Below the pieces are notes generated by a model. It saw only the letters and a program-made list of their open reading frames with translations, had not been told where the DNA came from and did not search any database. From assembly GCA_016218805.1 (NCBI GenBank), contig JACRCW010000101.1:1-52140 (forward strand): a DNA stretch of 52,140 nt, given 5' to 3'. Shown here piece by piece: positions 1-17,469 of the stretch. This DNA comes from Deltaproteobacteria bacterium. Its GTDB lineage: Bacteria; Myxococcota; JACRCW01. A program made the position numbers and the translations under genes. The first letter of the stretch is position 1, and each line of letters starts with the position of its first letter.

Positions 1-287
1 GGCTGTGCCGGTGCATGGCGACGTCACGGGTGTCCCGCTGGCGTCCCGGCCGGGGGCGGCCGGGCCACACCGCGCTGGCGTGCTACCTGGCCGCAGCGGC
101 GTTGTCGATCCCAGCGTCTACAACCATCTCGCATCACACCCATGCCAGGTGGCGCGCAACTGGGGGCCTGAACGGGCCTGAACGGTTAGGCGCTGGGTGG
201 ACCCTTGACAGAAGAACCGGCGCGATCTGACGCTCCAACAACCCACGAGTTCTGGGAGGAGGCGTACCATGACGTTGCCCAAGCCGT

Positions 288-554
288 ATGTCGTGCACCC
301 GTTGCATCCCGCGCTGCCGGTCGCCATTTGGCTTTGGGTTTCGGGATCCGTGCGACAAACACGATGAGTGCTACCAAACGTGTGGCAGTGACAAGGCGGC
401 GTGCGACGAGGCCTTTCGGCAGAGCCTGCTCCGCGTCTGCGGCTCCAACCCGTCCTGCAGGGGGCTAGCAAACACCTACTACAACATGGTCCGTGACTAT
501 GGTCAGAGTTCCTATGACGGCGATCAGCTGTACTGGTGTCAATGCTGCCCATGA
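288..554 (+). CDS. Secreted-type phospholipase A2-like domain (CxxHDxCY), probably an orphan toxin C-terminal fragment
   Basis: Translation contains GFGFRDPCDKHDECYQTCGSDKAACDEAF...C...C...ANTYYNMV...Q..CQC, a group XII/prokaryotic sPLA2-like pattern. In-frame stops lie just upstream (270-272) and there is no signal peptide, so the start is uncertain. Confidence 0.7.
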   Translation: MSCTRCIPRCRSPFGFGFRDPCDKHDECYQTCGSDKAACDEAFRQSLLRVCGSNPSCRGLANTYYNMVRDYGQSSYDGDQLYWCQCCP

Positions 555-1561
555 CCCAACGTCAGTGGCTGGCGCGTTCCGGCATGTTGATGCCCATCCT
601 GGGGTTGGCCGGCTGCTACGCCGTCCTCCCTCCTTGGCTGGGCAACCTGTTGAATACCTTTCATCCAGGGAACTGGCCTCCCGCAATCCTGAAAGGGCAG
701 GACCTGTTCAAGCGCACTCCTGTTCCAAATGAAGCCGCGGGGCCACGCGGGGTCTTTGACAAAGGGCGTGGTCTTGAGATCGCGCATTTCACTGACACGG
801 AAATAGAATTCTTGGATCCAACGACCTTCGACGTCCGTGAGCGAGTACCGTTCTCCGGTGTTCCGTGCTTCGGGTACAATCGCCCGGCCGGCCTTCGGCC
901 CTGCGACTTGATCAGCATTCGAAGCGACGGCGTCCTGAACTTCATGGCCGGGAGATCCGTTGGCGGCGATGACGTTGGACTTGCCGACGTAAATGGTGAG
1001 GAGGTGTGGAGGTTTCAGCCAACTCCCGGGGCCCACGCAGACCGAATGATCGCGGTGGACCTCGACGCAGATGGCGAGAAGGAGTTCTATGCCATAACGA
1101 TGGACGCGCTCTTTCGTCTCGACTCGACCGGGCGCGTGGTGTGGCGGGTCTCCACGCCGGCGTTCAACTGGTCATTGGATTGGATGCCGTCGTACCAAGA
1201 CCGGCCCCCAGCCGTTGTGACGGAGGCTGGCTTGTGGAACGCTAGGGGTAACCTTGTCCAGGAGATGAGGATTCGCGATCCATACTCGGTCAAGGTGGTC
1301 AGATGGAATGCGCATCCCTGCCTCGCACACGTCACGGACAGCGGGTCTGGCGTGCACATTCATGAGGTGAACGGGTCGCTCCAGTCCCAAGGGGAGATAG
1401 GACCGTTTGCTGTCAACGAGATCTTCACGGTCCGGTTGAAGCCCGACGCCCCGGAATGGGTCGTTGTGCGGGGCTTCACTCACTGGGTCAAACACGGGGA
1501 ACTCAGCATCTTCAATCACGACGGCGCGCTTGTGTACCGGGAGATTCGCACCGGCCGATGA
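551..1561 (+). CDS. Putative lipoprotein with beta-propeller/FG-GAP-like repeats; candidate immunity protein; C-terminus probably frameshifted
   Basis: The ATG at 551 overlaps the PLA2 stop (ATGA). It has a lipobox-like ILGLAGC, an AVDLDADGEKEF motif and repeated GxxxW strands. Confidence 0.6.
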   Translation: MTQRQWLARSGMLMPILGLAGCYAVLPPWLGNLLNTFHPGNWPPAILKGQDLFKRTPVPNEAAGPRGVFDKGRGLEIAHFTDTEIEFLDPTTFDVRERVPFSGVPCFGYNRPAGLRPCDLISIRSDGVLNFMAGRSVGGDDVGLADVNGEEVWRFQPTPGAHADRMIAVDLDADGEKEFYAITMDALFRLDSTGRVVWRVSTPAFNWSLDWMPSYQDRPPAVVTEAGLWNARGNLVQEMRIRDPYSVKVVRWNAHPCLAHVTDSGSGVHIHEVNGSLQSQGEIGPFAVNEIFTVRLKPDAPEWVVVRGFTHWVKHGELSIFNHDGALVYREIRTGR

Positions 1562-1650
1562 TTCGGGTTGTAGAAGGGCCGCCCAATGGCCCGGACGAGC
1601 TGTTTATCTCGGAGTTCAATGGTCCTGTGGTCCGCTGGGAGTTGCCCTGA
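1558..1650 (+). pseudogene. Probable out-of-frame C-terminal tail of the 551..1561 protein
   Basis: MIRVVEGPPNGPDELFISEFNGPVVRWELP reads like a final propeller blade and starts on the preceding stop (ATGA). Confidence 0.4.
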
Positions 1651-1976
1651 GACGCCGATGGGTGATGTCGCCCGAAGGTTGCGCGGCGCCGACGAGGCCG
1701 CCGTGGTGGTTACCGTTCCTTCCCGCCAATTCGAGGATGTGGCTGAGGAGACGTCGCGTCTCCAAGGTCGTTCCGCTTCCAGCGGCGGTCTTGCCGGGCG
1801 GTTATCACTGCGCAGGTGACGCGGCGTCGTGGAGGAGGCGCTGCGCGCGGTGGTGGCAGCCAGAAGCGGTCGGAGGCCGCGTAGTTGAGGCAGCCTACTG
1901 CGTGCACAACTGGTTTCCGGCCGGCCGGCCGGCTACCGGATGCACTTTCTGTTTCTGACTGCAGCGCGAGGGCAAG

Positions 1977-2729
1977 ATGACCATGTTACTTGCAGCTCTT
2001 GCCCTTTTGACAGCCGGACAGGTGCCGGACGATGAATGTGCGAAACAGCTGCGGTTCATCCGGGCCGCGACAGGTGCGGAGAAGGACGAATGGACACGGA
2101 GGGTTATTGCTGCCTCAGCGCGACGTGAGACGGCGCACGATCCGATTTGCTTGGTAGGCGCAGTGACCCCAGAAGACCAGTGGTTGATTCCTACCTTGGG
2201 TGAATTGCTGCGAAGCCCCGTCGACTCGGTGGCCCTCGCAGCGCACCACAAATTGCTGGATCTATTTCGGCCGCAGGCAGCCGACGTGTATGCCGCTGCC
2301 CTGACCGATCAAAGGACCATCCCGTACGTCCGGAAGCTGATCCTGGTGGATCTTGCTTGGTTCGGGCTCAACCACCCAACGGTCATCGCAGCGCTGGATG
2401 AAAAATGCAGGGAGCAGGAAAAAATGTCATGGGGGATCTTCCTGTTAGGGCACGGCGGGTGTCGTGAGGAGGGGGGACAGTGCCCTTTCTTCGTGGAAGT
2501 CCCGTATATTTGCAGCAGGGGTTTGGCCGCGAACACTCCGCTCAAGCGCCACGACCTGATCAATAGCGTGGATGGCACCGTTTTCAAGGAGGGGGAGGAC
2601 CTCCTGCTCTATCTGTCATCGCGGTCATCCGCGGTGTTTGAGGTGGAGCGCGGCGGGAAGGTGATGACCTTTAAGATCACCAGGGAAGGAACCGGAGTTA
2701 ACCTCAATTCGAGGGGGCACGCCAAGTGA
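1977..2729 (+). CDS. Exported hypothetical protein with a helical region and a C-terminal PDZ-like domain
   Basis: Signal-like N-terminus MTMLLAALALLTAG. The C-terminal GLAANTPLKRHDLINSVDG...FEVERGGK matches the PDZ AxxAGLxxGDxIxxVDG...VxRxG pattern. Confidence 0.6.
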   Translation: MTMLLAALALLTAGQVPDDECAKQLRFIRAATGAEKDEWTRRVIAASARRETAHDPICLVGAVTPEDQWLIPTLGELLRSPVDSVALAAHHKLLDLFRPQAADVYAAALTDQRTIPYVRKLILVDLAWFGLNHPTVIAALDEKCREQEKMSWGIFLLGHGGCREEGGQCPFFVEVPYICSRGLAANTPLKRHDLINSVDGTVFKEGEDLLLYLSSRSSAVFEVERGGKVMTFKITREGTGVNLNSRGHAK

Positions 2730-2748
2730 GGGGCAATCCAGGGAGAGG

Positions 2749-3974
2749 GTGACAACAGATGAGCTTGACGCCACGCCAGCGTTTGCCGAGATTTCGGTCA
2801 GCGAACCGGGCTCCAAGGGAGCGGACATGGCAGCATTGCGCTCGGCACCATTGGAGTTCCAACAGCATGCTCCCCTGATGGCGGCACCGGCGAGGGTCTC
2901 GGTGCAGCCCAAACCGGGGGCGCCGGGGGTCGCTACTGCCGCGCAAGTCTTCATGCCGCAGCGCATTGCTGTCGCGTCGGCACCCGCGCGCATCGTCCTT
3001 GGAGACCTACGGCCTCGCGTTGTCGCTCCCACGAGCGCAGCGCACTCCTGCAGTGGATGCTCAGGGTGCGGCACCGGCGGTGCCTGCAAGGGATGCAAGT
3101 GCAAGGGGTGCCCTGCCAGCGGCTGTCCAAAGGGCGGCACCGGCGGTGCCTGCAAGGGATGCAAGTGCAAGGCGTGCCCCTCCAGCGGCTGTCCAAAGGG
3201 GTGTTCTGCAAGTGCGGCGGGAGACAGGGAACGGCGGCGAGGGCCGCCCGCGCCACAGCCGATGGCGACCATACATATCACCGAGACAGAAGAGGGGACC
3301 TCGGCGGGCAGCCAAGGTGGGGCCGCCGGAGGAACCTCCGGGTCCGCCGGAACAACGTCCTCAGGGAGCCAGGCTGAGTCCTGCGCAACGAGGGCGAGGC
3401 GCCAGTGGTTGCAGTGCTTGGCGTGGGTGGACGAGGAGAACGGGACGGCGAACACCCCACAGCGTCGTGCGGCGATGGCGGCCTGTCGCTCCCGGTATGC
3501 GGACGAAGCGGCGGCGTGCCGGGCGGGTGGCGCGGCGGTGGCCCGGAAGAGGAAATGCGTCACTTCGCACAACAGGCGCGCGCTCACGCGCCGAGGCAGC
3601 AGGCCATCGTCGACAATCCGCCGGGGCCGGAGTGGGGGAGTTCAGCTCCGAGCAGCGAACCAGGCGGTGCCGGAGATGCGGTGACCCCCGGGGATTTCCA
3701 ATTGGGCGGGCGCCCGGGTGCGGGCCTCGGGATCCAAATTCGCGACGAAAGCACCACGGGCTGTCAACTGAAGGCAAAGTTCCTCGACGACCCGTCATTG
3801 CCGTATTGCGAGAACACAGAGGACGCAACCGCATACTGCGTGGCTGAGTTTGGCAACTACAACGAAAGGGTTGGCCGCTGGTATCGTCAAGATGCGCCAA
3901 CAACGGGACTATTGCAGAGTGCTGGTATTGCCCGGTTACTGGGGCTCGGAGACCAAGTTCATGACCGCTCATAG
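2749..3974 (+). pseudogene. Cys-rich hypothetical gene, probably frameshifted near 3530 (frames 2749..3684 and 3405..3974)
   Basis: GTG start after GGGAGAGG. The reading is protein-like in the first frame up to ...AAACRAGG, then in the second frame (GGGPEEEMRHFAQQ...PYCENTEDATAYCVAEFG). Confidence 0.45.
3068..3200 (+). repeat. Two 66-bp tandem copies encoding GTGGACKGCKCKxCPxSGCPKG
   Basis: gcggcaccggcggtgcctgcaagggatgcaagtgcaagg occurs at 3068 and 3134. Confidence 0.95.
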
Positions 3975-7561: not shown

Positions 7562-10500
7562 TCACGTGCGCGTCTCAGCCAGGCGCGTGGTCAGCCGCTG
7601 GATGCGCTCGGTCTTGTCCTTGATCTCGCGCGCCTGGCGGTCCGCCCGCTCCTTGAGCTCCTCCACCTGGCGCCGCAACTCCTCCACGTCCGGCGGGAGC
7701 GGTGCAGCGGGGGAGGGCGCTGCCGCCTGCGCCGCGGTGGCCTTGAGCGCCTCCAACTCGCGCACGGTGGTGGACATGGAGGCGCGCGCCCGTTCCAGTT
7801 CCTTCTTCAGCTCCGCCGCCTCCGTCCAGGCCTGGTCCGCGGTCTGCGCGCGGATGCGCAGCTGGTCCGCGTCCGTCAGCACCGGCACGGGGCCGTCCAC
7901 GTGCGCCAGCTTGGCGCGCAGCTGGGACATCTGCTGGTTGATGGTGACCAGCTCCGCGCGCAGCGAGATGACCTGGGTATCCCGGTCCTTCAGCTCGCGC
8001 GCCAGCGTGGTCAGCGAATCCGTGGTCGTCACCGGGCCACCGCCGCGGGCGGGCTCGGATTCCAGTGTGCGGATGCGCTCCTTGAGATCCTTGGCCTCGC
8101 GCGCGCTCTCGTCTGACTTCCGCCCGGCCTGCTCCAGCCGCGCCCGGGTCCGCGCGAGTTCATCCTGCAGCGCCTGGTTCTGCTCGCCCGCCGCCTTCAG
8201 CGTGGCGGCCAGGGCGCCCTGGGCGTTGAGCAGCTCCGCGTCCCGCTCCTGCAACTGTGTCTGCAGGGCGGTGGACCGGGCGCGCTCGGCGTCCAGCCCG
8301 GCGTCTGTGCCGGGGGCGGCGGCGGCGGCAGCGCGCCCCGCCAGCGCAACATCCAGCTCCACCTGCAGGTGGGCCAGCTGCCCCTGTGCGGCCGCCAACT
8401 CGGCGCGGGCCTGCGTCAGGCGCGCCTCAGCGTCGTCAGCGGTGCGGGTCGCCCGCAGGATGGACTCGTCCCGTTCGGCGGCCACCGTCGTCAGCTGGGC
8501 CTGCAGGCGGGTGCACTCGGCCTCCAGGTCCCCTGCGCGTGTCTGCAACACCGCGCCGGCGGCCGCGCGGGCCTCTGCGGCCTCGGCCCGGGCGTGGGCC
8601 GCGGCGGCCTCTTGCTGCGCGCGCGCCAGCTCGCTCTCCAGCGTGGTGGTCCGTGCGCCGGCCTCAGCCGCGTCGTGCAGGCGGGCGTCGGCGGCGGCGG
8701 CCAGCGCGCGCGCCTCGGCCAGGTCCGCGCGGACGCGCGCCATGTCGGTCTCCAGGGCGGCGGCGCGCACGCGGGTGGCTTCCAGCTCCGCGTCCGCGGA
8801 GCGCCGCGCGGTCACCAGTTCCTCCTGGAGACGCGCCGCCCGCTCACGGGCCTCGGTGGCGGCCTGGTCCAGCTCTGCGGCGCGGCGCGCCGCTTCCTCG
8901 CGCTCGGTGGCGGCATGGGCGCGCAGGGTGGCCAGCGCCTCCAACTGGGCCGCGGCGTGCAGTGACGCCTCCTGTTCGGCCGCCGCGGCGGACTGGCGCA
9001 GCCGCGCAAATTCCACCTCCGCCTGCTGCCGGGCCGCATGGGCCTCCGCGGTCTCCGCGCGCGCGCGCTCCACTTCCGCGCGGTCCAGCTGATAGGCCAC
9101 CTCGGCATCGCCGTGGCGCGAGCGCTCCTCCTCCAGCAGGCGGCGCGCATCTTCCAGCTCGGCGTGCGTGGCCTGCGCGCGCGCCAGGGCCTGGGCGGTC
9201 TGGGCGCGCGCCTCGTCCAGGGTGCCACGCAGGGTGCGGGTGTCGTCGGTTGCCTGGGCCAGCCCGCCGCGCGCGGCGTCCAACTCCTGTTGCAGGGCGG
9301 CGGCGTGCTGGCGCGCCCGGTCCGACTCGGCGGACCAGCCCGCCGCGTGTTCCCGCGCCTCCTCCAACGCCGCGCGGGCATGGTCGGCGTCGTTGGCGGA
9401 GCGGCGCGCCTGTTCCTGCGCCTCCTCCAGGGCGGCGCGCACGTGGTCGGCGTCGTTGGCGGAGCGGCGCGCCTGCTCCTGCGCTTCCTCCAGCGCGGCG
9501 CGGACATGGTCGGCGTCGTTGGCGGAGCGGTGTGCCTGCTCCTGCGCCTCTTCCAGGGCGGCGCGGACATGGTCGGCGTCGTTGGCGGAGCGGCGTGCCT
9601 GCTCCTGCGCCTCTTCCAGGGCGGCGCGGACATGGTCGGCGTCGTTGGCAGAGCGCTGTGCCTGCTCCTGCGTTTCCTCCAGGGCGGCGCGGACATGGTC
9701 GGCGTCGTTGGCGGAGCGGCGGGCCTGCTCCTGCGTTTCCTCCAGGGCGGCGCGGACATGGTCGGCGTCGTTGGCGGAGCGGCGGGCCTGTTCCTGGGCT
9801 TCCTCCAGGGCGGCGCGGGCATGGTCGGCGTCGTTGGCGGCACGCCGGGCCTGTTCCTGCGCTTCCTCCAGCACGCTGCGCAGGTGCTCCACCTCGCTGG
9901 CGCGGCGCGCCAGCTCGTCGCGGGCCTGGTCACCCTGTTGTGACACCTGGCGGGCCGAATCCAGCTCGCCACCCAGCCGTTCCACCTCGGTGCGCAGGCG
10001 CGCAGCTTCCTCCTGGGCCTCCTGCGCGTCCTGCCGCGACAGGGCGAGCTGCTCGGTCATGGCGCCCAGGCGCTGGCCCGCCTTGCGGTTGTCCTCGTGC
10101 TGCTGGGTCCCCAGCTGGTCCACCTGCACGCGCAGCCCGGCCACCTCGGACTCCAGGGTGTCCGCGCGGCGCGCCCGCTCATCAGCCGCCGCCAGGCGCG
10201 CCTCCAGCTGCGCGGTCCGCGCGCGCTGGGCGGCCAGCTCCTCCTCCAACTGGGCCGCCCGCTGCGCCTGCTCCGCGGCGCCGCCCGCCTGGGACTCCAG
10301 GGCGCGCGCGCGCTCCAGCGCGGCCTTCAGGTCCTCGCCCAGGACCTGTTCCACGTCCACGGCCCGCTGCGCCGCCTCCGCGCGCGCGGCCTGGGCGTCC
10401 GCCAGGGCGCGCTCCGCCTCCACCAGCCTGGCGCGGACCCGGCCCACCTCGTCCTCGGCGCGTGCGCGCTGCTCGCGCGCCAGGAACGTCTCCCGCGCGG

Positions 10501-13225: not shown

Positions 13226-13371
13226 GCACCGCCCACGTCGTGCACCGGGCATTCCCCCGGCGACGTTGTGGGACCGTAGGCCCCCTCATGACCCGCTTCA
13301 ACTTTCCGGCTCGCGGCTCCGCCGGATTCCGCTTGCCTCCGCTGTCCCACCTTGTCCTAGAAACGCTCCCC

Positions 13372-14787
13372 ATGGGCCACCTTGCTGACCGCCTGGAGAC
13401 GCGCGCCCCGCCCGCCGTGGCGGACCGCGCGTGGGAACTGCTGCGCCATCCCCACGTGCTGGGCTCCTTCCTCCAGCGCCAACTGCCGCCCTCCCAAACC
13501 GGCCGCTTTGCCCTGCCCCTTTCCGACGCTGACCCTGCGCCCCACCTGGTGGTGACGCCGGATGGCCGCGGCGTGACCTGCCTGGCGGCGGGCATGATCA
13601 CGGACAGTCCCCGTATCCCGTGGCCCCGCGTGGCGGCCTACCTGGACGCGCAGGCCCAGGACCTGCGCCAGCGCGTGGCCAGCGGGCGGCTGGCTGCGGA
13701 CGCGTCGCTGCATGAGAGCCTGGAGCGGTCCGTCCAGCGCGCCTACCGCATGACCCGCGCCGAGTTTGACCGCGTCCGCCTCCTGGCGCCGCTGCTGCAT
13801 GACCTGCTGAGAGAGATGCTGGACAAACAGCTCCGGCGCCTGGAGCGGGTGTCCAATGAGAGCCGGCGGCTGGCCCGCTACGCAGTGGACGCGCACGCGG
13901 ACGCCGAGTGGTCCCTGTACACCGCCGCCTGCACCATGCTGCTGGCCTGCGCCAATGAGCCCGGCGTGGAAATCCCCGCCGTCATGTCCATGAGCCCGCT
14001 GGATCCCCTGTTGAGCGGGCGCGGCCTGTGGGTCCTGGTGAACTGGCCGGAACGCACGCTGGCCCTGGCGGACCGCTGCCTGCGCGAAGACCGCCGGTCC
14101 TTCATGCCCTACCTCCGCGGCGCGTTGTCGTGCATCGGCTGGCGGTTCGCCTGGCACCGCCGGGCCGCGGAGCAGGCGCGTGCCACCATGCTTGCGGTGA
14201 CGCGCCAGGACTTCGTCACCCCCCCCGGCCTCACCCTGACGCGCCAGGACTGGCTGGAACAGGCGCTGGACGTGGCGCGGGATTCGGCCCGGGCGGGCCT
14301 GCCCCAGGATCCGCCGGCCCCCGCACCGCTGCGCAACGCAGAGGAACGGGACCTGCTCAAGGACCTGCAGCGCGCCGCCGCCGGTGACCCCGCCGTCCTG
14401 CGCGAACTTGACCGCCTGGACCCCGTGCGCGGCCTGTTCTCCGACCCGGTGGAACGCCGCTGGCCACCGCCGCACCTCCCAGCCGTGGTGGACCCCGCCG
14501 CGTTCTGGCAACGCCACATGCTCCACGCAACCGAGGAGTCGCCCTTCATGGAACTCAGCGTGGGGCTGTGGTGGTCCAACGCGTCCCTGGACGCGCTGGC
14601 TCCTCCCCCGGAACCAGACCCGTTGTGGTCCGCCGCGGACGGGCGCGCCTACGTCCGTGAAACGCTGGTCCGCAACCTGCGCGGCCCGCAGCCCCGTGAA
14701 CCCGATCGCGCCGCCCCCAAGCCCGGCCGCAATGAACCGTGTTCGTGCGGCAGCGGTAAGAAGTTCAAGCGCTGCTGCGGCGCGTGA
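13372..14787 (+). CDS. SEC-C motif protein, paralog A
   Basis: C-terminal PGRNEPCSCGSGKKFKRCC; N-terminal PHLVVTPDGRGVTCLAAGM shared with 16081..17469. Start chosen by alignment of the MGH N-termini. Confidence 0.85.
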   Translation: MGHLADRLETRAPPAVADRAWELLRHPHVLGSFLQRQLPPSQTGRFALPLSDADPAPHLVVTPDGRGVTCLAAGMITDSPRIPWPRVAAYLDAQAQDLRQRVASGRLAADASLHESLERSVQRAYRMTRAEFDRVRLLAPLLHDLLREMLDKQLRRLERVSNESRRLARYAVDAHADAEWSLYTAACTMLLACANEPGVEIPAVMSMSPLDPLLSGRGLWVLVNWPERTLALADRCLREDRRSFMPYLRGALSCIGWRFAWHRRAAEQARATMLAVTRQDFVTPPGLTLTRQDWLEQALDVARDSARAGLPQDPPAPAPLRNAEERDLLKDLQRAAAGDPAVLRELDRLDPVRGLFSDPVERRWPPPHLPAVVDPAAFWQRHMLHATEESPFMELSVGLWWSNASLDALAPPPEPDPLWSAADGRAYVRETLVRNLRGPQPREPDRAAPKPGRNEPCSCGSGKKFKRCCGA

Positions 14788-14792
14788 GGATG

Positions 14793-14912
14793 TGCGGCGG
14801 ATCCCATCCTGAGCAAGACGGTGAGGCGGGTACGCATGCACGCAGAACGTGCATGCAGTCCGGACGGGGCATTCGTGGCGCAGATGCCGGCTCAGGATGG
14901 GAGCCGCTCGCA
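14793..14912. other. Structured intergenic element (17/18-bp terminal inverted repeat with two internal hairpins); ncRNA, MITE or REPIN candidate
   Basis: gcggatcccatcctgagc (14797-14814) pairs with gctcaggatgggagccgc (14890-14907). Internal hairpins are GCATGCACG-cagaa-CGTGCATGC (14834-14856) and GGCAT...ATGCC (14868-14888). Confidence 0.7.
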
Positions 14913-15034
14913 ACTGCACCGGGAGCACCAGACTCCTGCCGAGCCCGTCGCGCGGTCCGGGACGGCCATTGACAGCCCGTTGAAAGCTATGGTTTTCACG
15001 GCGGCAACAAAACAACGCAAAGGAGGGGTTTCCC

Positions 15035-15778
15035 ATGCCCAACGGCACCCATCTCACCATTGACGAAATGGAACGCGTCATTGACGACCTGCTCGCCCGG
15101 CGCTCCCCGGCGCTGGCCCGGTTGAGCGCGGGCGGCATCTACCGCGCGCTGCTGGAGAAGAAGCAGGCGGAACTCAAGGCGCTGCCACCCGCGCTGCGCG
15201 GCCTGCCGCGCGCCGAACAACTCCGGCTGTTGGACGTGGACCACGACCGCTGCATCCGGGCCATCAACTACCTGCGCGAGGCCCTGGAGGCCTGGCCCTA
15301 CGCCACCCCCGCCATGCGGGCCGCCAGCGCCACCCTGGTCACTCACTTCATCACCGGCCCCGGGATGACCCAGAAGCCGTACGGCGTGCAGTCCCGCGTT
15401 GCCGCGGAAGCCGAACCCAAGCTCACCACCCACGGCCCCGCATTGGCCGCCGTGCCCACGCCGGACGGCGCCAACCTGAAGGTGTGGGTGGAGAAGTATG
15501 TGGCGGCGGGCAAGGCGCTGGGCAGCTCGCATTCGGGCCGCGCGGATGACCTGGCGGGGCGCGGGGACGGCGCCGCGGCCGCCCCACTGCGCGGCGCGCT
15601 GATTGGCATCTTTGTTGACCTGCGCACGGCCATCGCGCGTGAGCTTGAGGTCAACGCCGCACTCCCGCGCAGCCTGGAAGATGACGTCCTGGGCTACCTG
15701 GACGAATTGGAGCGCCTGGCCCTGGCCCGCGCCGCTGGCCCCACCGCCGCTCCGCCGGCCGGACCGGGCCCGGTCTGA
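15035..15778 (+). CDS. All-helical hypothetical protein, DUF6261-like by motif resemblance
   Basis: Strong SD (AAGGAGGGG) before the ATG. EQLRLLDVDHDRCIRAI and AASATLVTHFITGPGMTQKPYGVQ resemble the DUF6261 'ADxxRD' and 'AxxLxxxF...xxPYxxE' pattern. Confidence 0.85.
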   Translation: MPNGTHLTIDEMERVIDDLLARRSPALARLSAGGIYRALLEKKQAELKALPPALRGLPRAEQLRLLDVDHDRCIRAINYLREALEAWPYATPAMRAASATLVTHFITGPGMTQKPYGVQSRVAAEAEPKLTTHGPALAAVPTPDGANLKVWVEKYVAAGKALGSSHSGRADDLAGRGDGAAAAPLRGALIGIFVDLRTAIARELEVNAALPRSLEDDVLGYLDELERLALARAAGPTAAPPAGPGPV

Positions 15779-15794
15779 CCCCCGTCACAAAACC

Positions 15795-16020
15795 CGGTTG
15801 CAGCCGCCTTGGGCGTACCCCCGGGGTATGGGCTGGGCGGTTTCGGCCGTCTTGGGGGTGCCCCTGGGGTATGTGCCGGGCGGTTTCAACCGTCTTGGCG
15901 GTACCCCCGGGATAGGGGCCGGGCGGTTTCAACCGCCATGGAGTATCCCCGGGGTATGAGCTGGGCGGTGTCATCCGGCCTGGAGGTACCCCCTGGGTAT
16001 GGGCCGGGCGGTTACAACCG
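15795..16020. repeat. Non-coding tandem array of 43-bp units (5 full plus 1 partial), each with two palindromes
   Basis: Units start at 15795, 15838, 15881, 15924, 15966 and 16009. Consensus CGGTTTCAACCGyCTTGGnGGTACCCCCGGGGTATGGGCyGGG. Confidence 0.92.
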
Positions 16021-16080
16021 GGCGGTCACCCGCCACGTACGTGATTTCATGCGGCACTTGCCGGAGTGGGAGGAACGCGC

Positions 16081-17469
16081 ATGGGGCACGCCGCGCATTT
16101 CCTGGAACGGCTGGAGCGCGCTTCAGCGGCGGAGGCGGATGACGCGTTGGCGCTGTACCGGGATGTCCCCGGGTTGGCGTTCATGGTGTTCCGCTGCCTG
16201 CCGGACCTGGCGGCCGAGGCGCGGGTGGCGCTGTCACTGAATGCGGCGGACAAGGGCCCGCACCTGGTGGTGACGCGCGAAGGGCAGTTTGTGACCTGCC
16301 TGGGGCGGGGGATGGCGCCGCGGGGGTTGCCGGTGGTGAACCACCAGGCGTTGACGGCGGCGCGCGCGGAGCTGGCGGAGCAGCGCCGCCGCATGCAGCT
16401 TGCGCGGGAGCTGGCCGGCAGCGAGGACCTCAAGGGGTTGTGGCAGCGGCTTCTGGCCAAGGCGGAGGCGGTGTCGCGGGAGGAGTTCCTGGCCGTGGCG
16501 GCGCTGCAACCGTTGCTCAAGAAGCGCTTGTTGGTGTCGCACCTGCGCATTGCGGATGACCTGGCGGAGGCCCGGGAGTTGCTCAAGAAGGTGCAGCGGC
16601 CCACGGCGGCGCAGGCCAAGCACCTGCGGGCGTTCTGGCAGTCCGCGTGGTTCATGGGGGACCAGCTGGTGCTGGGGTGCCTGGACGGGCGGCGCGGGCT
16701 CACGCAGGAGTTGATCCGCGTCCTGTCCGCGGAGGGGTACCTTGCGTGGGGCGTGTTCCGCCAGGGCGAACAGGTGCTGGCCCTGCGCGCACTGTGGGCG
16801 ATGGGGCGGTGGGGCAAGCCGCTGCTGGAGGGGCTGACCGCGATGTTCAGCAAGGCCAGTACGCTGTTGAGTTGGATGTATTCGGCGTGCGGGCTGCTGA
16901 TGATTGCGCTGCGCTACCCGCAGTACCGGCGGCGCATCACGGACCTGGTCACGGCGTCCCGCCCACCGGATATCCTGCTGGACCACCTGGGCAAGGCCGC
17001 AGGGGCGTTTGCGAAGATCCTGGTGAAGTACCGCACCAGCCCGGAGGACCTGACGGACCTCAGCCTGCAGTGGTGGCGGCGCGAATACGTGCGCTTCCAG
17101 GACAAGGTGCACAGCCCGGCGCATCTGAGGTTTGCGACGGCCGCGGAGGTGCCGGAGGACCTGGCTCTGACGTGGGGCGCCAACCAGGAGGCGGACCTGA
17201 TGAATGACCCGGCCGCGCCAGTGGCGCTGTTGATGTGGTTGCCGTGGCTGGCCCGGGTGGAGGCGCAGGAGTTGTACCTGCCGGCGGAGGTGGCAGCCGT
17301 GTGGCGGACCCCGTGGCGCCCGGAGCGCGCACTGGCGTGGGTGCAGCGGTACGAGGACCACTACGGGCCGCGGCAACCCGTCACGGTGGCCGCGGTCCCC
17401 GGGCGCAACGCGCCATGCACCTGCGGGAGCGGCAAGAAGTACAAGCGCTGCTGCGGCGCCGCGGCGTAG
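16081..17469 (+). CDS. SEC-C motif protein, paralog B
   Basis: SD GGGAGGA before the ATG at 16081; GPHLVVTREGQFVTCLGRGM; C-terminal PGRNAPCTCGSGKKYKRCC. Confidence 0.9.
   Translation: MGHAAHFLERLERASAAEADDALALYRDVPGLAFMVFRCLPDLAAEARVALSLNAADKGPHLVVTREGQFVTCLGRGMAPRGLPVVNHQALTAARAELAEQRRRMQLARELAGSEDLKGLWQRLLAKAEAVSREEFLAVAALQPLLKKRLLVSHLRIADDLAEARELLKKVQRPTAAQAKHLRAFWQSAWFMGDQLVLGCLDGRRGLTQELIRVLSAEGYLAWGVFRQGEQVLALRALWAMGRWGKPLLEGLTAMFSKASTLLSWMYSACGLLMIALRYPQYRRRITDLVTASRPPDILLDHLGKAAGAFAKILVKYRTSPEDLTDLSLQWWRREYVRFQDKVHSPAHLRFATAAEVPEDLALTWGANQEADLMNDPAAPVALLMWLPWLARVEAQELYLPAEVAAVWRTPWRPERALAWVQRYEDHYGPRQPVTVAAVPGRNAPCTCGSGKKYKRCCGAAA

Follow-up and report, generated by a model that had tools for sequence, protein, structure and literature searches.

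A tandem array of fixed period beside the gene for a predicted helical dimer: a candidate two-part module in a Myxococcota genome

Introduction

The intergenic region at 15795..16020 of the window, by which we mean the whole 52,140-nucleotide stretch of DNA that was analyzed, holds a tandem array of palindromic units, and it raises the question of whether the array belongs with the gene that precedes it and, if so, what the pair might do. Why unrelated bacterial satellites have the same unit of 21-22 or 43-44 bp, and how they spread, are stated as open questions in passages of two earlier papers (PMC8161180, PMC6749651). The best reading of our results is that the array and the preceding gene form one two-part module. 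The gene link suggests a possible protein partner for fixed-length bacterial repeats, and with the adjacent protein family named, and many natural pairs of protein and array that differ in sequence, the question could be tested directly by cross-binding assays.

Results

The array consists of two alternating palindromes

The array comprises five 42-43-bp units and a sixth copy of the first palindrome, begins 17 bp 3' of the upstream stop codon, and stops about 60 bp short of a gene for a SEC-C protein. TRF called 15795-16020 with a period of 43, 5.3 copies, 78% matches, 1% indels and a score of 263. The first copy of palindrome A (15795..15806) is imperfect, and later copies start at 15838, 15881, 15924, 15966 and 16009. 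The spacings between A cores are 43, 43, 43, 42 and 43, which gives the count of five full units plus a sixth A. The first copy of palindrome B (15816..15828) is the sole strict copy, and later B centers lie near 15865, 15908, 15950 and 15993. The dyad centers fall at unit position 6.5 for A and 28 for B (27 in the 42-bp unit), and the distances from A to B and from B to A are both 21.5 bp. An earlier reading, made from the sequence alone, had described a 43-bp array of two alternating palindromes 21.5 bp apart, with one 42-bp unit amid the 43-bp units, and the TRF call and core positions bear out both points. Both palindromes are imperfect: the strict pattern is present in three of the six A copies (15881, 15924, 16009) and one of the five B copies.

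The identity of the array at its best lag, 43, was 0.84; genome-wide, 0.65 was reached at non-triplet lags by 63 of 4959 gene flanks. When the columns of the unit were shuffled (n = 100), the best dyad score was matched by six shuffles and the second by none. The consensus unit and its reverse complement shared 60% identity (p = 0.012, 1000 shuffles), and the unit reads as two inverted halves. These comparisons place the repeat above chance. Arrays built of two inverted halves were also seen at L014, L015, L050 and G000:C1:10866-11156. The array was spanned without differences by one contig of sequencing run X1, which possibly has the same source DNA, and three DNA runs of a single study gave contigs with no informative joint within the array.

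The proposal that the sites are phased along the helix held in part. The period is near two or four helical turns, but with 10.5 bp to a turn a 43-bp unit makes 4.1 turns, and only underwound or bent DNA would keep the supposed single face from drifting by ~35 degrees with each unit. A dicodon gene caller placed the array in an intergenic region, in agreement with the view that it is non-coding. That it is not a CRISPR also stood: its linkers are related and 7-9 bp long, not unique spacers, there was no cas match in the window, and no Rfam family was found (the only match, inside the gene, was a chance one). CRISPR-like arrays with periods of 71-73 and 61 were observed at G000:C59:44220-45848, C97:34754-35272 and C113:35309-36069.

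The array is a member of a published satellite class

The window is an entire chromosomal contig of a 6.4-Mb, 70% GC genome, with housekeeping genes as neighbors. The dicodon caller found 5211 genes in this genome. Among its intergenic TRF arrays, 61 of 98 had a smallest period of 21, 22, 42, 43 or 44, and their sequences were unrelated; no coding array had a period of 22, 43 or 44. The lag spectrum of 1612 intergenic gaps had peaks at 21-22, 42-44, 63-66, 84-88, 105-110 and 126-132. We grouped 82 arrays into 52 sequence families, setting aside 11 further candidates with other periods. The array in the window has 5.3 units, where the class calls for at least four, and it lies outside called genes; its unit is double the 21-22-nt unit, and the genome contains several unrelated families of the same length. 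It is a member of the published fixed-length, variable-sequence class of non-coding bacterial satellites.

The sequence-only reading had likened the array to a centromere or iteron platform, and this did not hold. In the 52-kb window there were no par, rep, cas, integrase or reverse-transcriptase matches among the 38 genes scanned out of 40 called, the other two being ORFs of ~50 aa. The array has inverted-repeat tandem units at ~43-bp spacing, as in sopC/parS; there was no match to ParA/SopA or ParB/SopB among the 38 scanned genes, and we rejected a centromere of this type. A plasmid iteron origin was also rejected: there was no Rep match, and the array lies at 70% GC among chromosomal housekeeping genes, whereas an AT-rich unwinding region would be expected.

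Several other features of the window were recorded. Proteins ending in SEC-C are encoded at 13240-14787 and 16066-17469, flanking the module on both sides, and the 3' coding ends of the two genes are 82% alike over 62 bp. A separate hairpin upstream of the P0001 gene (14797-14907), with inverted arms of 18 bp separated by 75 bp, has the appearance of a MITE or REP-type repeat; it had 16 more BLAST matches in the genome (77-91%) and a high metagenome depth that came from other contigs. A 63-bp coding repeat (9351-9871, 8.3 copies) lies in a gene for a 1896-aa methyltransferase and coiled-coil protein. The GC content is lower (61-62%) at 1-3000, with a match to prokaryotic phospholipase A2 at 288-551.

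The neighboring gene encodes a predicted all-helical homodimer

The partner gene of the array (15035..15778, + strand) encodes a DUF6261-like protein of 247 aa, P0001, which is predicted to be an all-helical homodimer. Signals upstream of it (14969..15028, + strand), read from the sequence, are a TTGACA hexamer at 14969-14974 and a purine-rich putative ribosome-binding site at 15020-15028. A scan of 14700-16200 found no full promoter (no full sigma-70 consensus) and no terminator.

The model of P0001 was all-helical with a pLDDT of 93.9. Fold searches of PDB and BFVD gave nothing at E<=0.001, and the best VIA match was a plant invertase-inhibitor four-helix bundle (Z 10.1, rmsd 2.7, 102 aligned), within the usual range for helical bundles. 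By sequence, the matches in PDB were designed helical proteins only. P0001 contained no enzyme fold, no invariant catalytic column and, in family searches, no known DNA-binding domain, and it is neutral (29 K+R, 29 D+E). The homodimer score was 0.59, compared to 0.00 for the best control, and the runs shared at least 67% of contacts with a pLDDT of at least 72; the mark used was passed by 20 of 30 solved pairs and one of 23 single chains.

P0001 had 293 relatives at E<=0.001 (50%-identity representatives), mostly in Myxococcota. The family was present in five of 251 sampled genomes of the phylum, including its own, and is therefore patchy in the genomes searched. Polyangium genomes each have 9-12 family genes, and viral contigs contained no relative. 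Searches of P0001 and 13-17 other array-flanking helical proteins against Pfam, PHROGs, PADLOC and NCBIfam returned nothing useful.

P0001 had no Pfam match to DUF6261 (PF19775). Three of 123 relatives matched PF19775 at E<=0.01 (best E 2e-4), and the best PF19775 score in its own genome was 21.8 bits, under the curated cut-off of 27. An Atlas feature score of 0.96 connected P0001 to clusters with DUF6261 in 14-31% of members, and its predicted fold had a TM of 0.48 to a 97%-DUF6261 cluster. On these comparisons, P0001 would be at most a remote relative of DUF6261. Clusters of DUF6261 from Bacteroidota carry the name 'hemagglutinin family protein' in the Atlas. Another array-flanking helical protein had an all-helical but weak single-sequence model (pLDDT 67), and for a second the Atlas lead to DUF6261 was only 0.86. 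A single superfamily for all array-flanking helical proteins was rejected; profile pairs were significant in only one of six.

Genes of the P0001 family usually adjoin an array

The sequence-only reading named a repeat dispersed through the genome and unlinked to the gene family as an outcome that would speak against it. The array period is dispersed genome-wide, yet such arrays are also linked to genes. We gathered homologous loci by protein similarity only, leaving out three loci of the own genome, six duplicates, seven hits below 100 bits and eight with an incomplete flank, and counting one microsatellite locus as a miss. An array was called when a score of at least 0.65 was reached at a multiple of 21.5 within 400 bp of the gene. 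Arrays were found at 20 of 35 loci of the family (15 downstream, 5 upstream), compared to four of 193 control windows further out at the same loci, which bears out the proposed link between the array and the gene family of 15035-15778; because three Polyangium species supply many of the 35 loci as orthologues, the 20 are not independent events and Fisher p values overstate the association. The other 15 loci were below the strict cut-off. The best of 130 lags was a multiple of 43 at 27 of the 35 family loci and at 81 of 474 random genes. The same 21.5-multiple criterion gave a background of 137 of 4959 genes in this genome.

DUF6261-like family genes usually adjoin such an array on the 3' or 5' side, and each of these arrays has a sequence of its own. 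Within the P0001 family the period of the array is conserved and its sequence is not: units are 42-44 bp, and their sequences are unrelated except among close orthologues. Arrays were unrelated even between proteins ~50% identical, so that any binding model requires a rapid change in specificity. On the tree, the array changed sides repeatedly, with 5 changes for the 5' position.

Three further helical families were tested in five other genomes, and arrays were found at 4/11, 3/14 and 0/12 loci, compared to 2/148 controls; a fourth gave one weak hit in the five genomes and was not scored. Only the family with 3/14 was shown to be related to the P0001 family, as a remote relative (HHalign 88.9%, E 2.4e-6, 165 columns). 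The family with 0/12 is array-linked in this genome, where we also noted 25 helical-looking orphans of 210-280 aa near arrays, most of them chosen for that nearness.

These results bear on a reading in which an unrelated host factor binds or generates the arrays and the helical genes merely travel with them through variable intergenic slots, without interaction. It draws on the fact that most arrays of the genome have no adjacent helical gene, on the lability of side and sequence, on the helical family without a link elsewhere, and on a slot (L095 versus L089) that contains different arrays in two species, one of them a different 21-bp array. Against it, the enrichment does not extend beyond 400 bp from the gene, and genes of 200-290 aa are not generally enriched for arrays (38 of 982). 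In addition, the array often starts 10-30 bp from the stop codon, and orthologues retain related arrays after relocation. We consider mere co-travel improbable.

The double palindrome is not a general property of these arrays. Two dyads 21.5 bp apart were clear in three of 37 scored 42-44-bp arrays (C64, C78, L004), and as a rule for every unit across the family this fails. None of nine gene-linked 21/22-bp arrays had dyads, and it follows that the conserved trait is the period and not the double palindrome. Dyads were common among 3' arrays of 42-44 bp, and 11 of 36 arrays of this size resembled their own reverse complement.

Arrays and gene-array blocks change neighborhood

A sibling of the window array on contig C20 (71% identity) lies between two convergent unrelated genes, with no family gene beside it. 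Gene-plus-array blocks change neighborhood between species, and sibling arrays without the gene occur elsewhere. Orthologous blocks had sharp ends and different neighborhoods in congeneric species; examples of their limits are from 52 bp before the start codon to the array end, and from the array start to the stop codon. At one syntenic site (L096 versus L092) the array was kept and the gene was absent. Homology was limited to the array in 10 of 14 sibling pairs in this genome, in either orientation and with up to 95% identity. Of the 20 multi-member array families, 11 had a member beside a helical gene and nine had no identified partner (several of these at contig ends). Arrays preferred convergent gaps (17 of 68, versus 193 of 1586), and their strand polarity was mirrored about the gene: the sense strand was G+T-rich in 20 of 30 3' arrays and in two of 14 5' arrays, and ordinary flanks were unskewed.

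Apart from the families with no identified partner, these patterns are consistent with a selfish module, in which the protein would make or spread the array by duplications of 21.5n bp and copying, alone or with a host recombination enzyme. A RAYT gene, for comparison, maintains its own REP family. Several observations argue against such a module, beginning with the lack of an enzyme fold or invariant catalytic column in P0001. Across 61 arrays there was no excess of flanking direct repeats (10/61, versus 16% in permutations) or inverted repeats (13/61, versus 15%), although array ends are fuzzy and short target duplications could escape this test. There was no common end motif, with GTAG at one of 61 arrays, and no shared flanks or TIRs were found. 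On the same figures we rejected a MITE or REPIN, and also a target-site duplication at the C20 sibling, where an 8-bp direct repeat had been a candidate. Excision as a circle and reintegration was rejected as well: the same array flanked the gene on both sides in none of 42 + 23 loci. Remnants of helical genes were found at G000:C44:72547-72824, C97:20668-20915, C76:12206-12331 and C9:11533-11703, and those on C44 and C76 adjoin gene-less arrays, so that plain gene decay also yields orphan arrays. A satellite-transposition mechanism of unknown nature was inferred in part of an earlier account (PMC6749651), which counts in favor of the selfish module. On balance we regard it as unlikely.

A 150-aa ORF lies to the left of the array at G000:C54:79087-79313, and we take it to resemble the N-terminus of a RAYT/Y1 transposase. 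A repeat likewise lies next to its homologue on C6.

The arrays probably act as DNA

We found a -35-like TTG[A/C] motif 41-31 bp (~38 bp) before the start codon in 30 of 41 family genes, compared to 1.6 expected from control offsets. This position suggests that the family mRNAs are leaderless, which would place the 5' arrays outside of the predicted transcript. Stem mismatches across 3' arrays were 15 G-T and 17 A-C. The position of the promoter and the absence of a G-U bias favor a role at the DNA level, and such a role would fit with arrays on either side of the gene. Stem positions were less variable than others (123/1036 versus 406/2376), a comparison biased by the setting of the stems on the consensus.

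The sequence-only reading had offered a multi-hairpin RNA as a second possibility, and it fared poorly here. The array would be co-transcribed with the gene and processed to ~43-nt hairpin RNAs bound by the protein, in the manner of TIGR or of a type III antitoxin. The short distance from the stop codon, with no terminator found, is compatible with this, and the sense strand of the window array folds better than shuffles (z -2.41) where the antisense strand does not (z -0.03). In the window array and its C20 sibling, G-T mismatches outnumbered A-C by 18 to 2, partly at one consensus G-T position. The even mismatches overall, the rarity of compensatory changes (7 cells), the upstream arrays of homologues, the related linkers where unique guides would be needed, and the lack of a Pfam match to Nop or of an Rfam family make an RNA module very unlikely.

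Discussion

A proposed protein lattice

We propose that P0001, as a dimer, binds its own array in the form of a phased DNA lattice, and on the sequence patterns and models we put the chance of this at about even. An elongated helical homodimer would bind the array as double-stranded DNA, with a dimer on each dyad or at each 21.5-bp step, and the resulting phased protein lattice would resemble that of SopB on sopC. The geometry of the protein would set the period, and the sequences of protein and array could drift together. Dispersed sibling arrays would be extra sites for the same protein, arising by array copying or gene loss. The lattice might organize the nucleoid, insulate locally or serve in autoregulation, and nucleoid anchoring is our first guess. 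The neutral charge of P0001, the lack of a known DNA-binding motif, the rapid turnover of sequence, the families and loci without arrays, and the multi-member array families for which no partner gene was identified count against binding. A dimer on each dyad also misfits some arrays, because 21/22-bp arrays are non-palindromic and most 42-44-bp arrays do not resemble their reverse complement.

A broader proposal, which we advance only tentatively, is that DUF6261-like dimers are the missing factor behind satellites of 21-22 and 43-44 bp. Each paralogue would have specific arrays, a re-programmable scaffold would set the period, and a co-mobile module without a known recombinase would seed satellites; this genome has about two dozen candidate paralogues. 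If true, bacteria would have a counterpart of satellite DNA that co-evolves with the proteins binding it. If binding is cognate-specific, the proteins would be a large, fast-diversifying DNA-binding family whose fold differs from known DNA-binding domains and whose targets are ready-made.

The new element is the gene link; the fixed-length satellite class itself has already been published. We add arrays on either side of the gene, orphan siblings, the mobility of the blocks, a predicted dimer and tests that weigh against an RNA function.

Comparison with known systems

The closest likeness in geometry is to sopC/SopB of the F plasmid: tandem inverted-repeat units of 43 bp (also 44-45 bp) lie directly downstream of the gene for a dimeric protein, which in our case is predicted. 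A 43-bp dyad array of this kind can function as a protein lattice, as described in PMC3177203. Unlike sopC/SopB, the locus has no sopA/sopB pair or HTH protein, is chromosomal and has two dyads per unit; the unit sequence varies between loci, and about two dozen such loci occur in one genome.

In TIGR-Tas, as described in the consulted portion of PMC12045711, a lone gene for a dimeric protein is followed by an array whose units each hold two repeats in alternation, separated by short linkers. The window array has the same arrangement, the dimer again being predicted. Unlike TIGR-Tas it has no variable spacers, both linkers being conserved within the array, and on this ground we rejected the assignment. 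Its period is 43, where the TIGR period is 36 nt, and arrays of the family also occur upstream of the promoter. The Nop domain of TIGR-Tas had no Pfam match in P0001 and was absent from the fold matches listed.

In RAYT-REP and REPIN systems each paralogue has its own dispersed family of palindromic intergenic repeats, enriched between convergent genes. In genome layout the arrays here are most like these systems, with helical paralogues that have their own array families and an enrichment in convergent gaps. Unlike RAYT-REP/REPIN, there is no HUH transposase fold, GTAG is nearly absent from the array ends and the tandem period is fixed. BrickBuilt and MITEPgRS of Porphyromonas gingivalis are, in the excerpts consulted, intergenic arrays that lie dispersed and are built of short, imperfect units, which measure 23 nt in BrickBuilt (PMC4596501, PMC2575886). 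They have leader or tail segments and IS-type TIRs, unlike the arrays here, which showed neither common flanks nor TIRs nor target duplications.

The literature searched, which covered few subscription journals, linked no DUF6261-like gene to arrays, and mentioned DUF6261 only in papers on streptococci. On myxobacterial repeats or constant repeats adjacent to genes, the portions covered, including those of PMC13390158, held nothing relevant. As general background, hagB reportedly has a 42-bp repeat, for which we found no support in the literature searched.

The arrays correspond most fully to the known satellites. A 2020 satellite paper in J Bacteriol is said to label the class '22/44 nt'. Like the satellites of Subirana and Messeguer, the arrays are intergenic, with a fixed unit size, many unrelated families and, here too, dispersed siblings. 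In the text consulted, these authors describe units of a fixed 20-23 nt and multiples thereof, with many unrelated families per genome and dispersed siblings (PMC8161180); sections of two papers give further accounts of a non-coding satellite class of constant length and variable sequence (PMC8625621, PMC6749651). PMC8161180 also predicts an unknown protein that needs a constant repeat size, and notes the correspondence to two helical turns, naming no partner gene in the part consulted. Unlike those satellites, the arrays described here adjoin a specific gene family, and many of their units have dyads.
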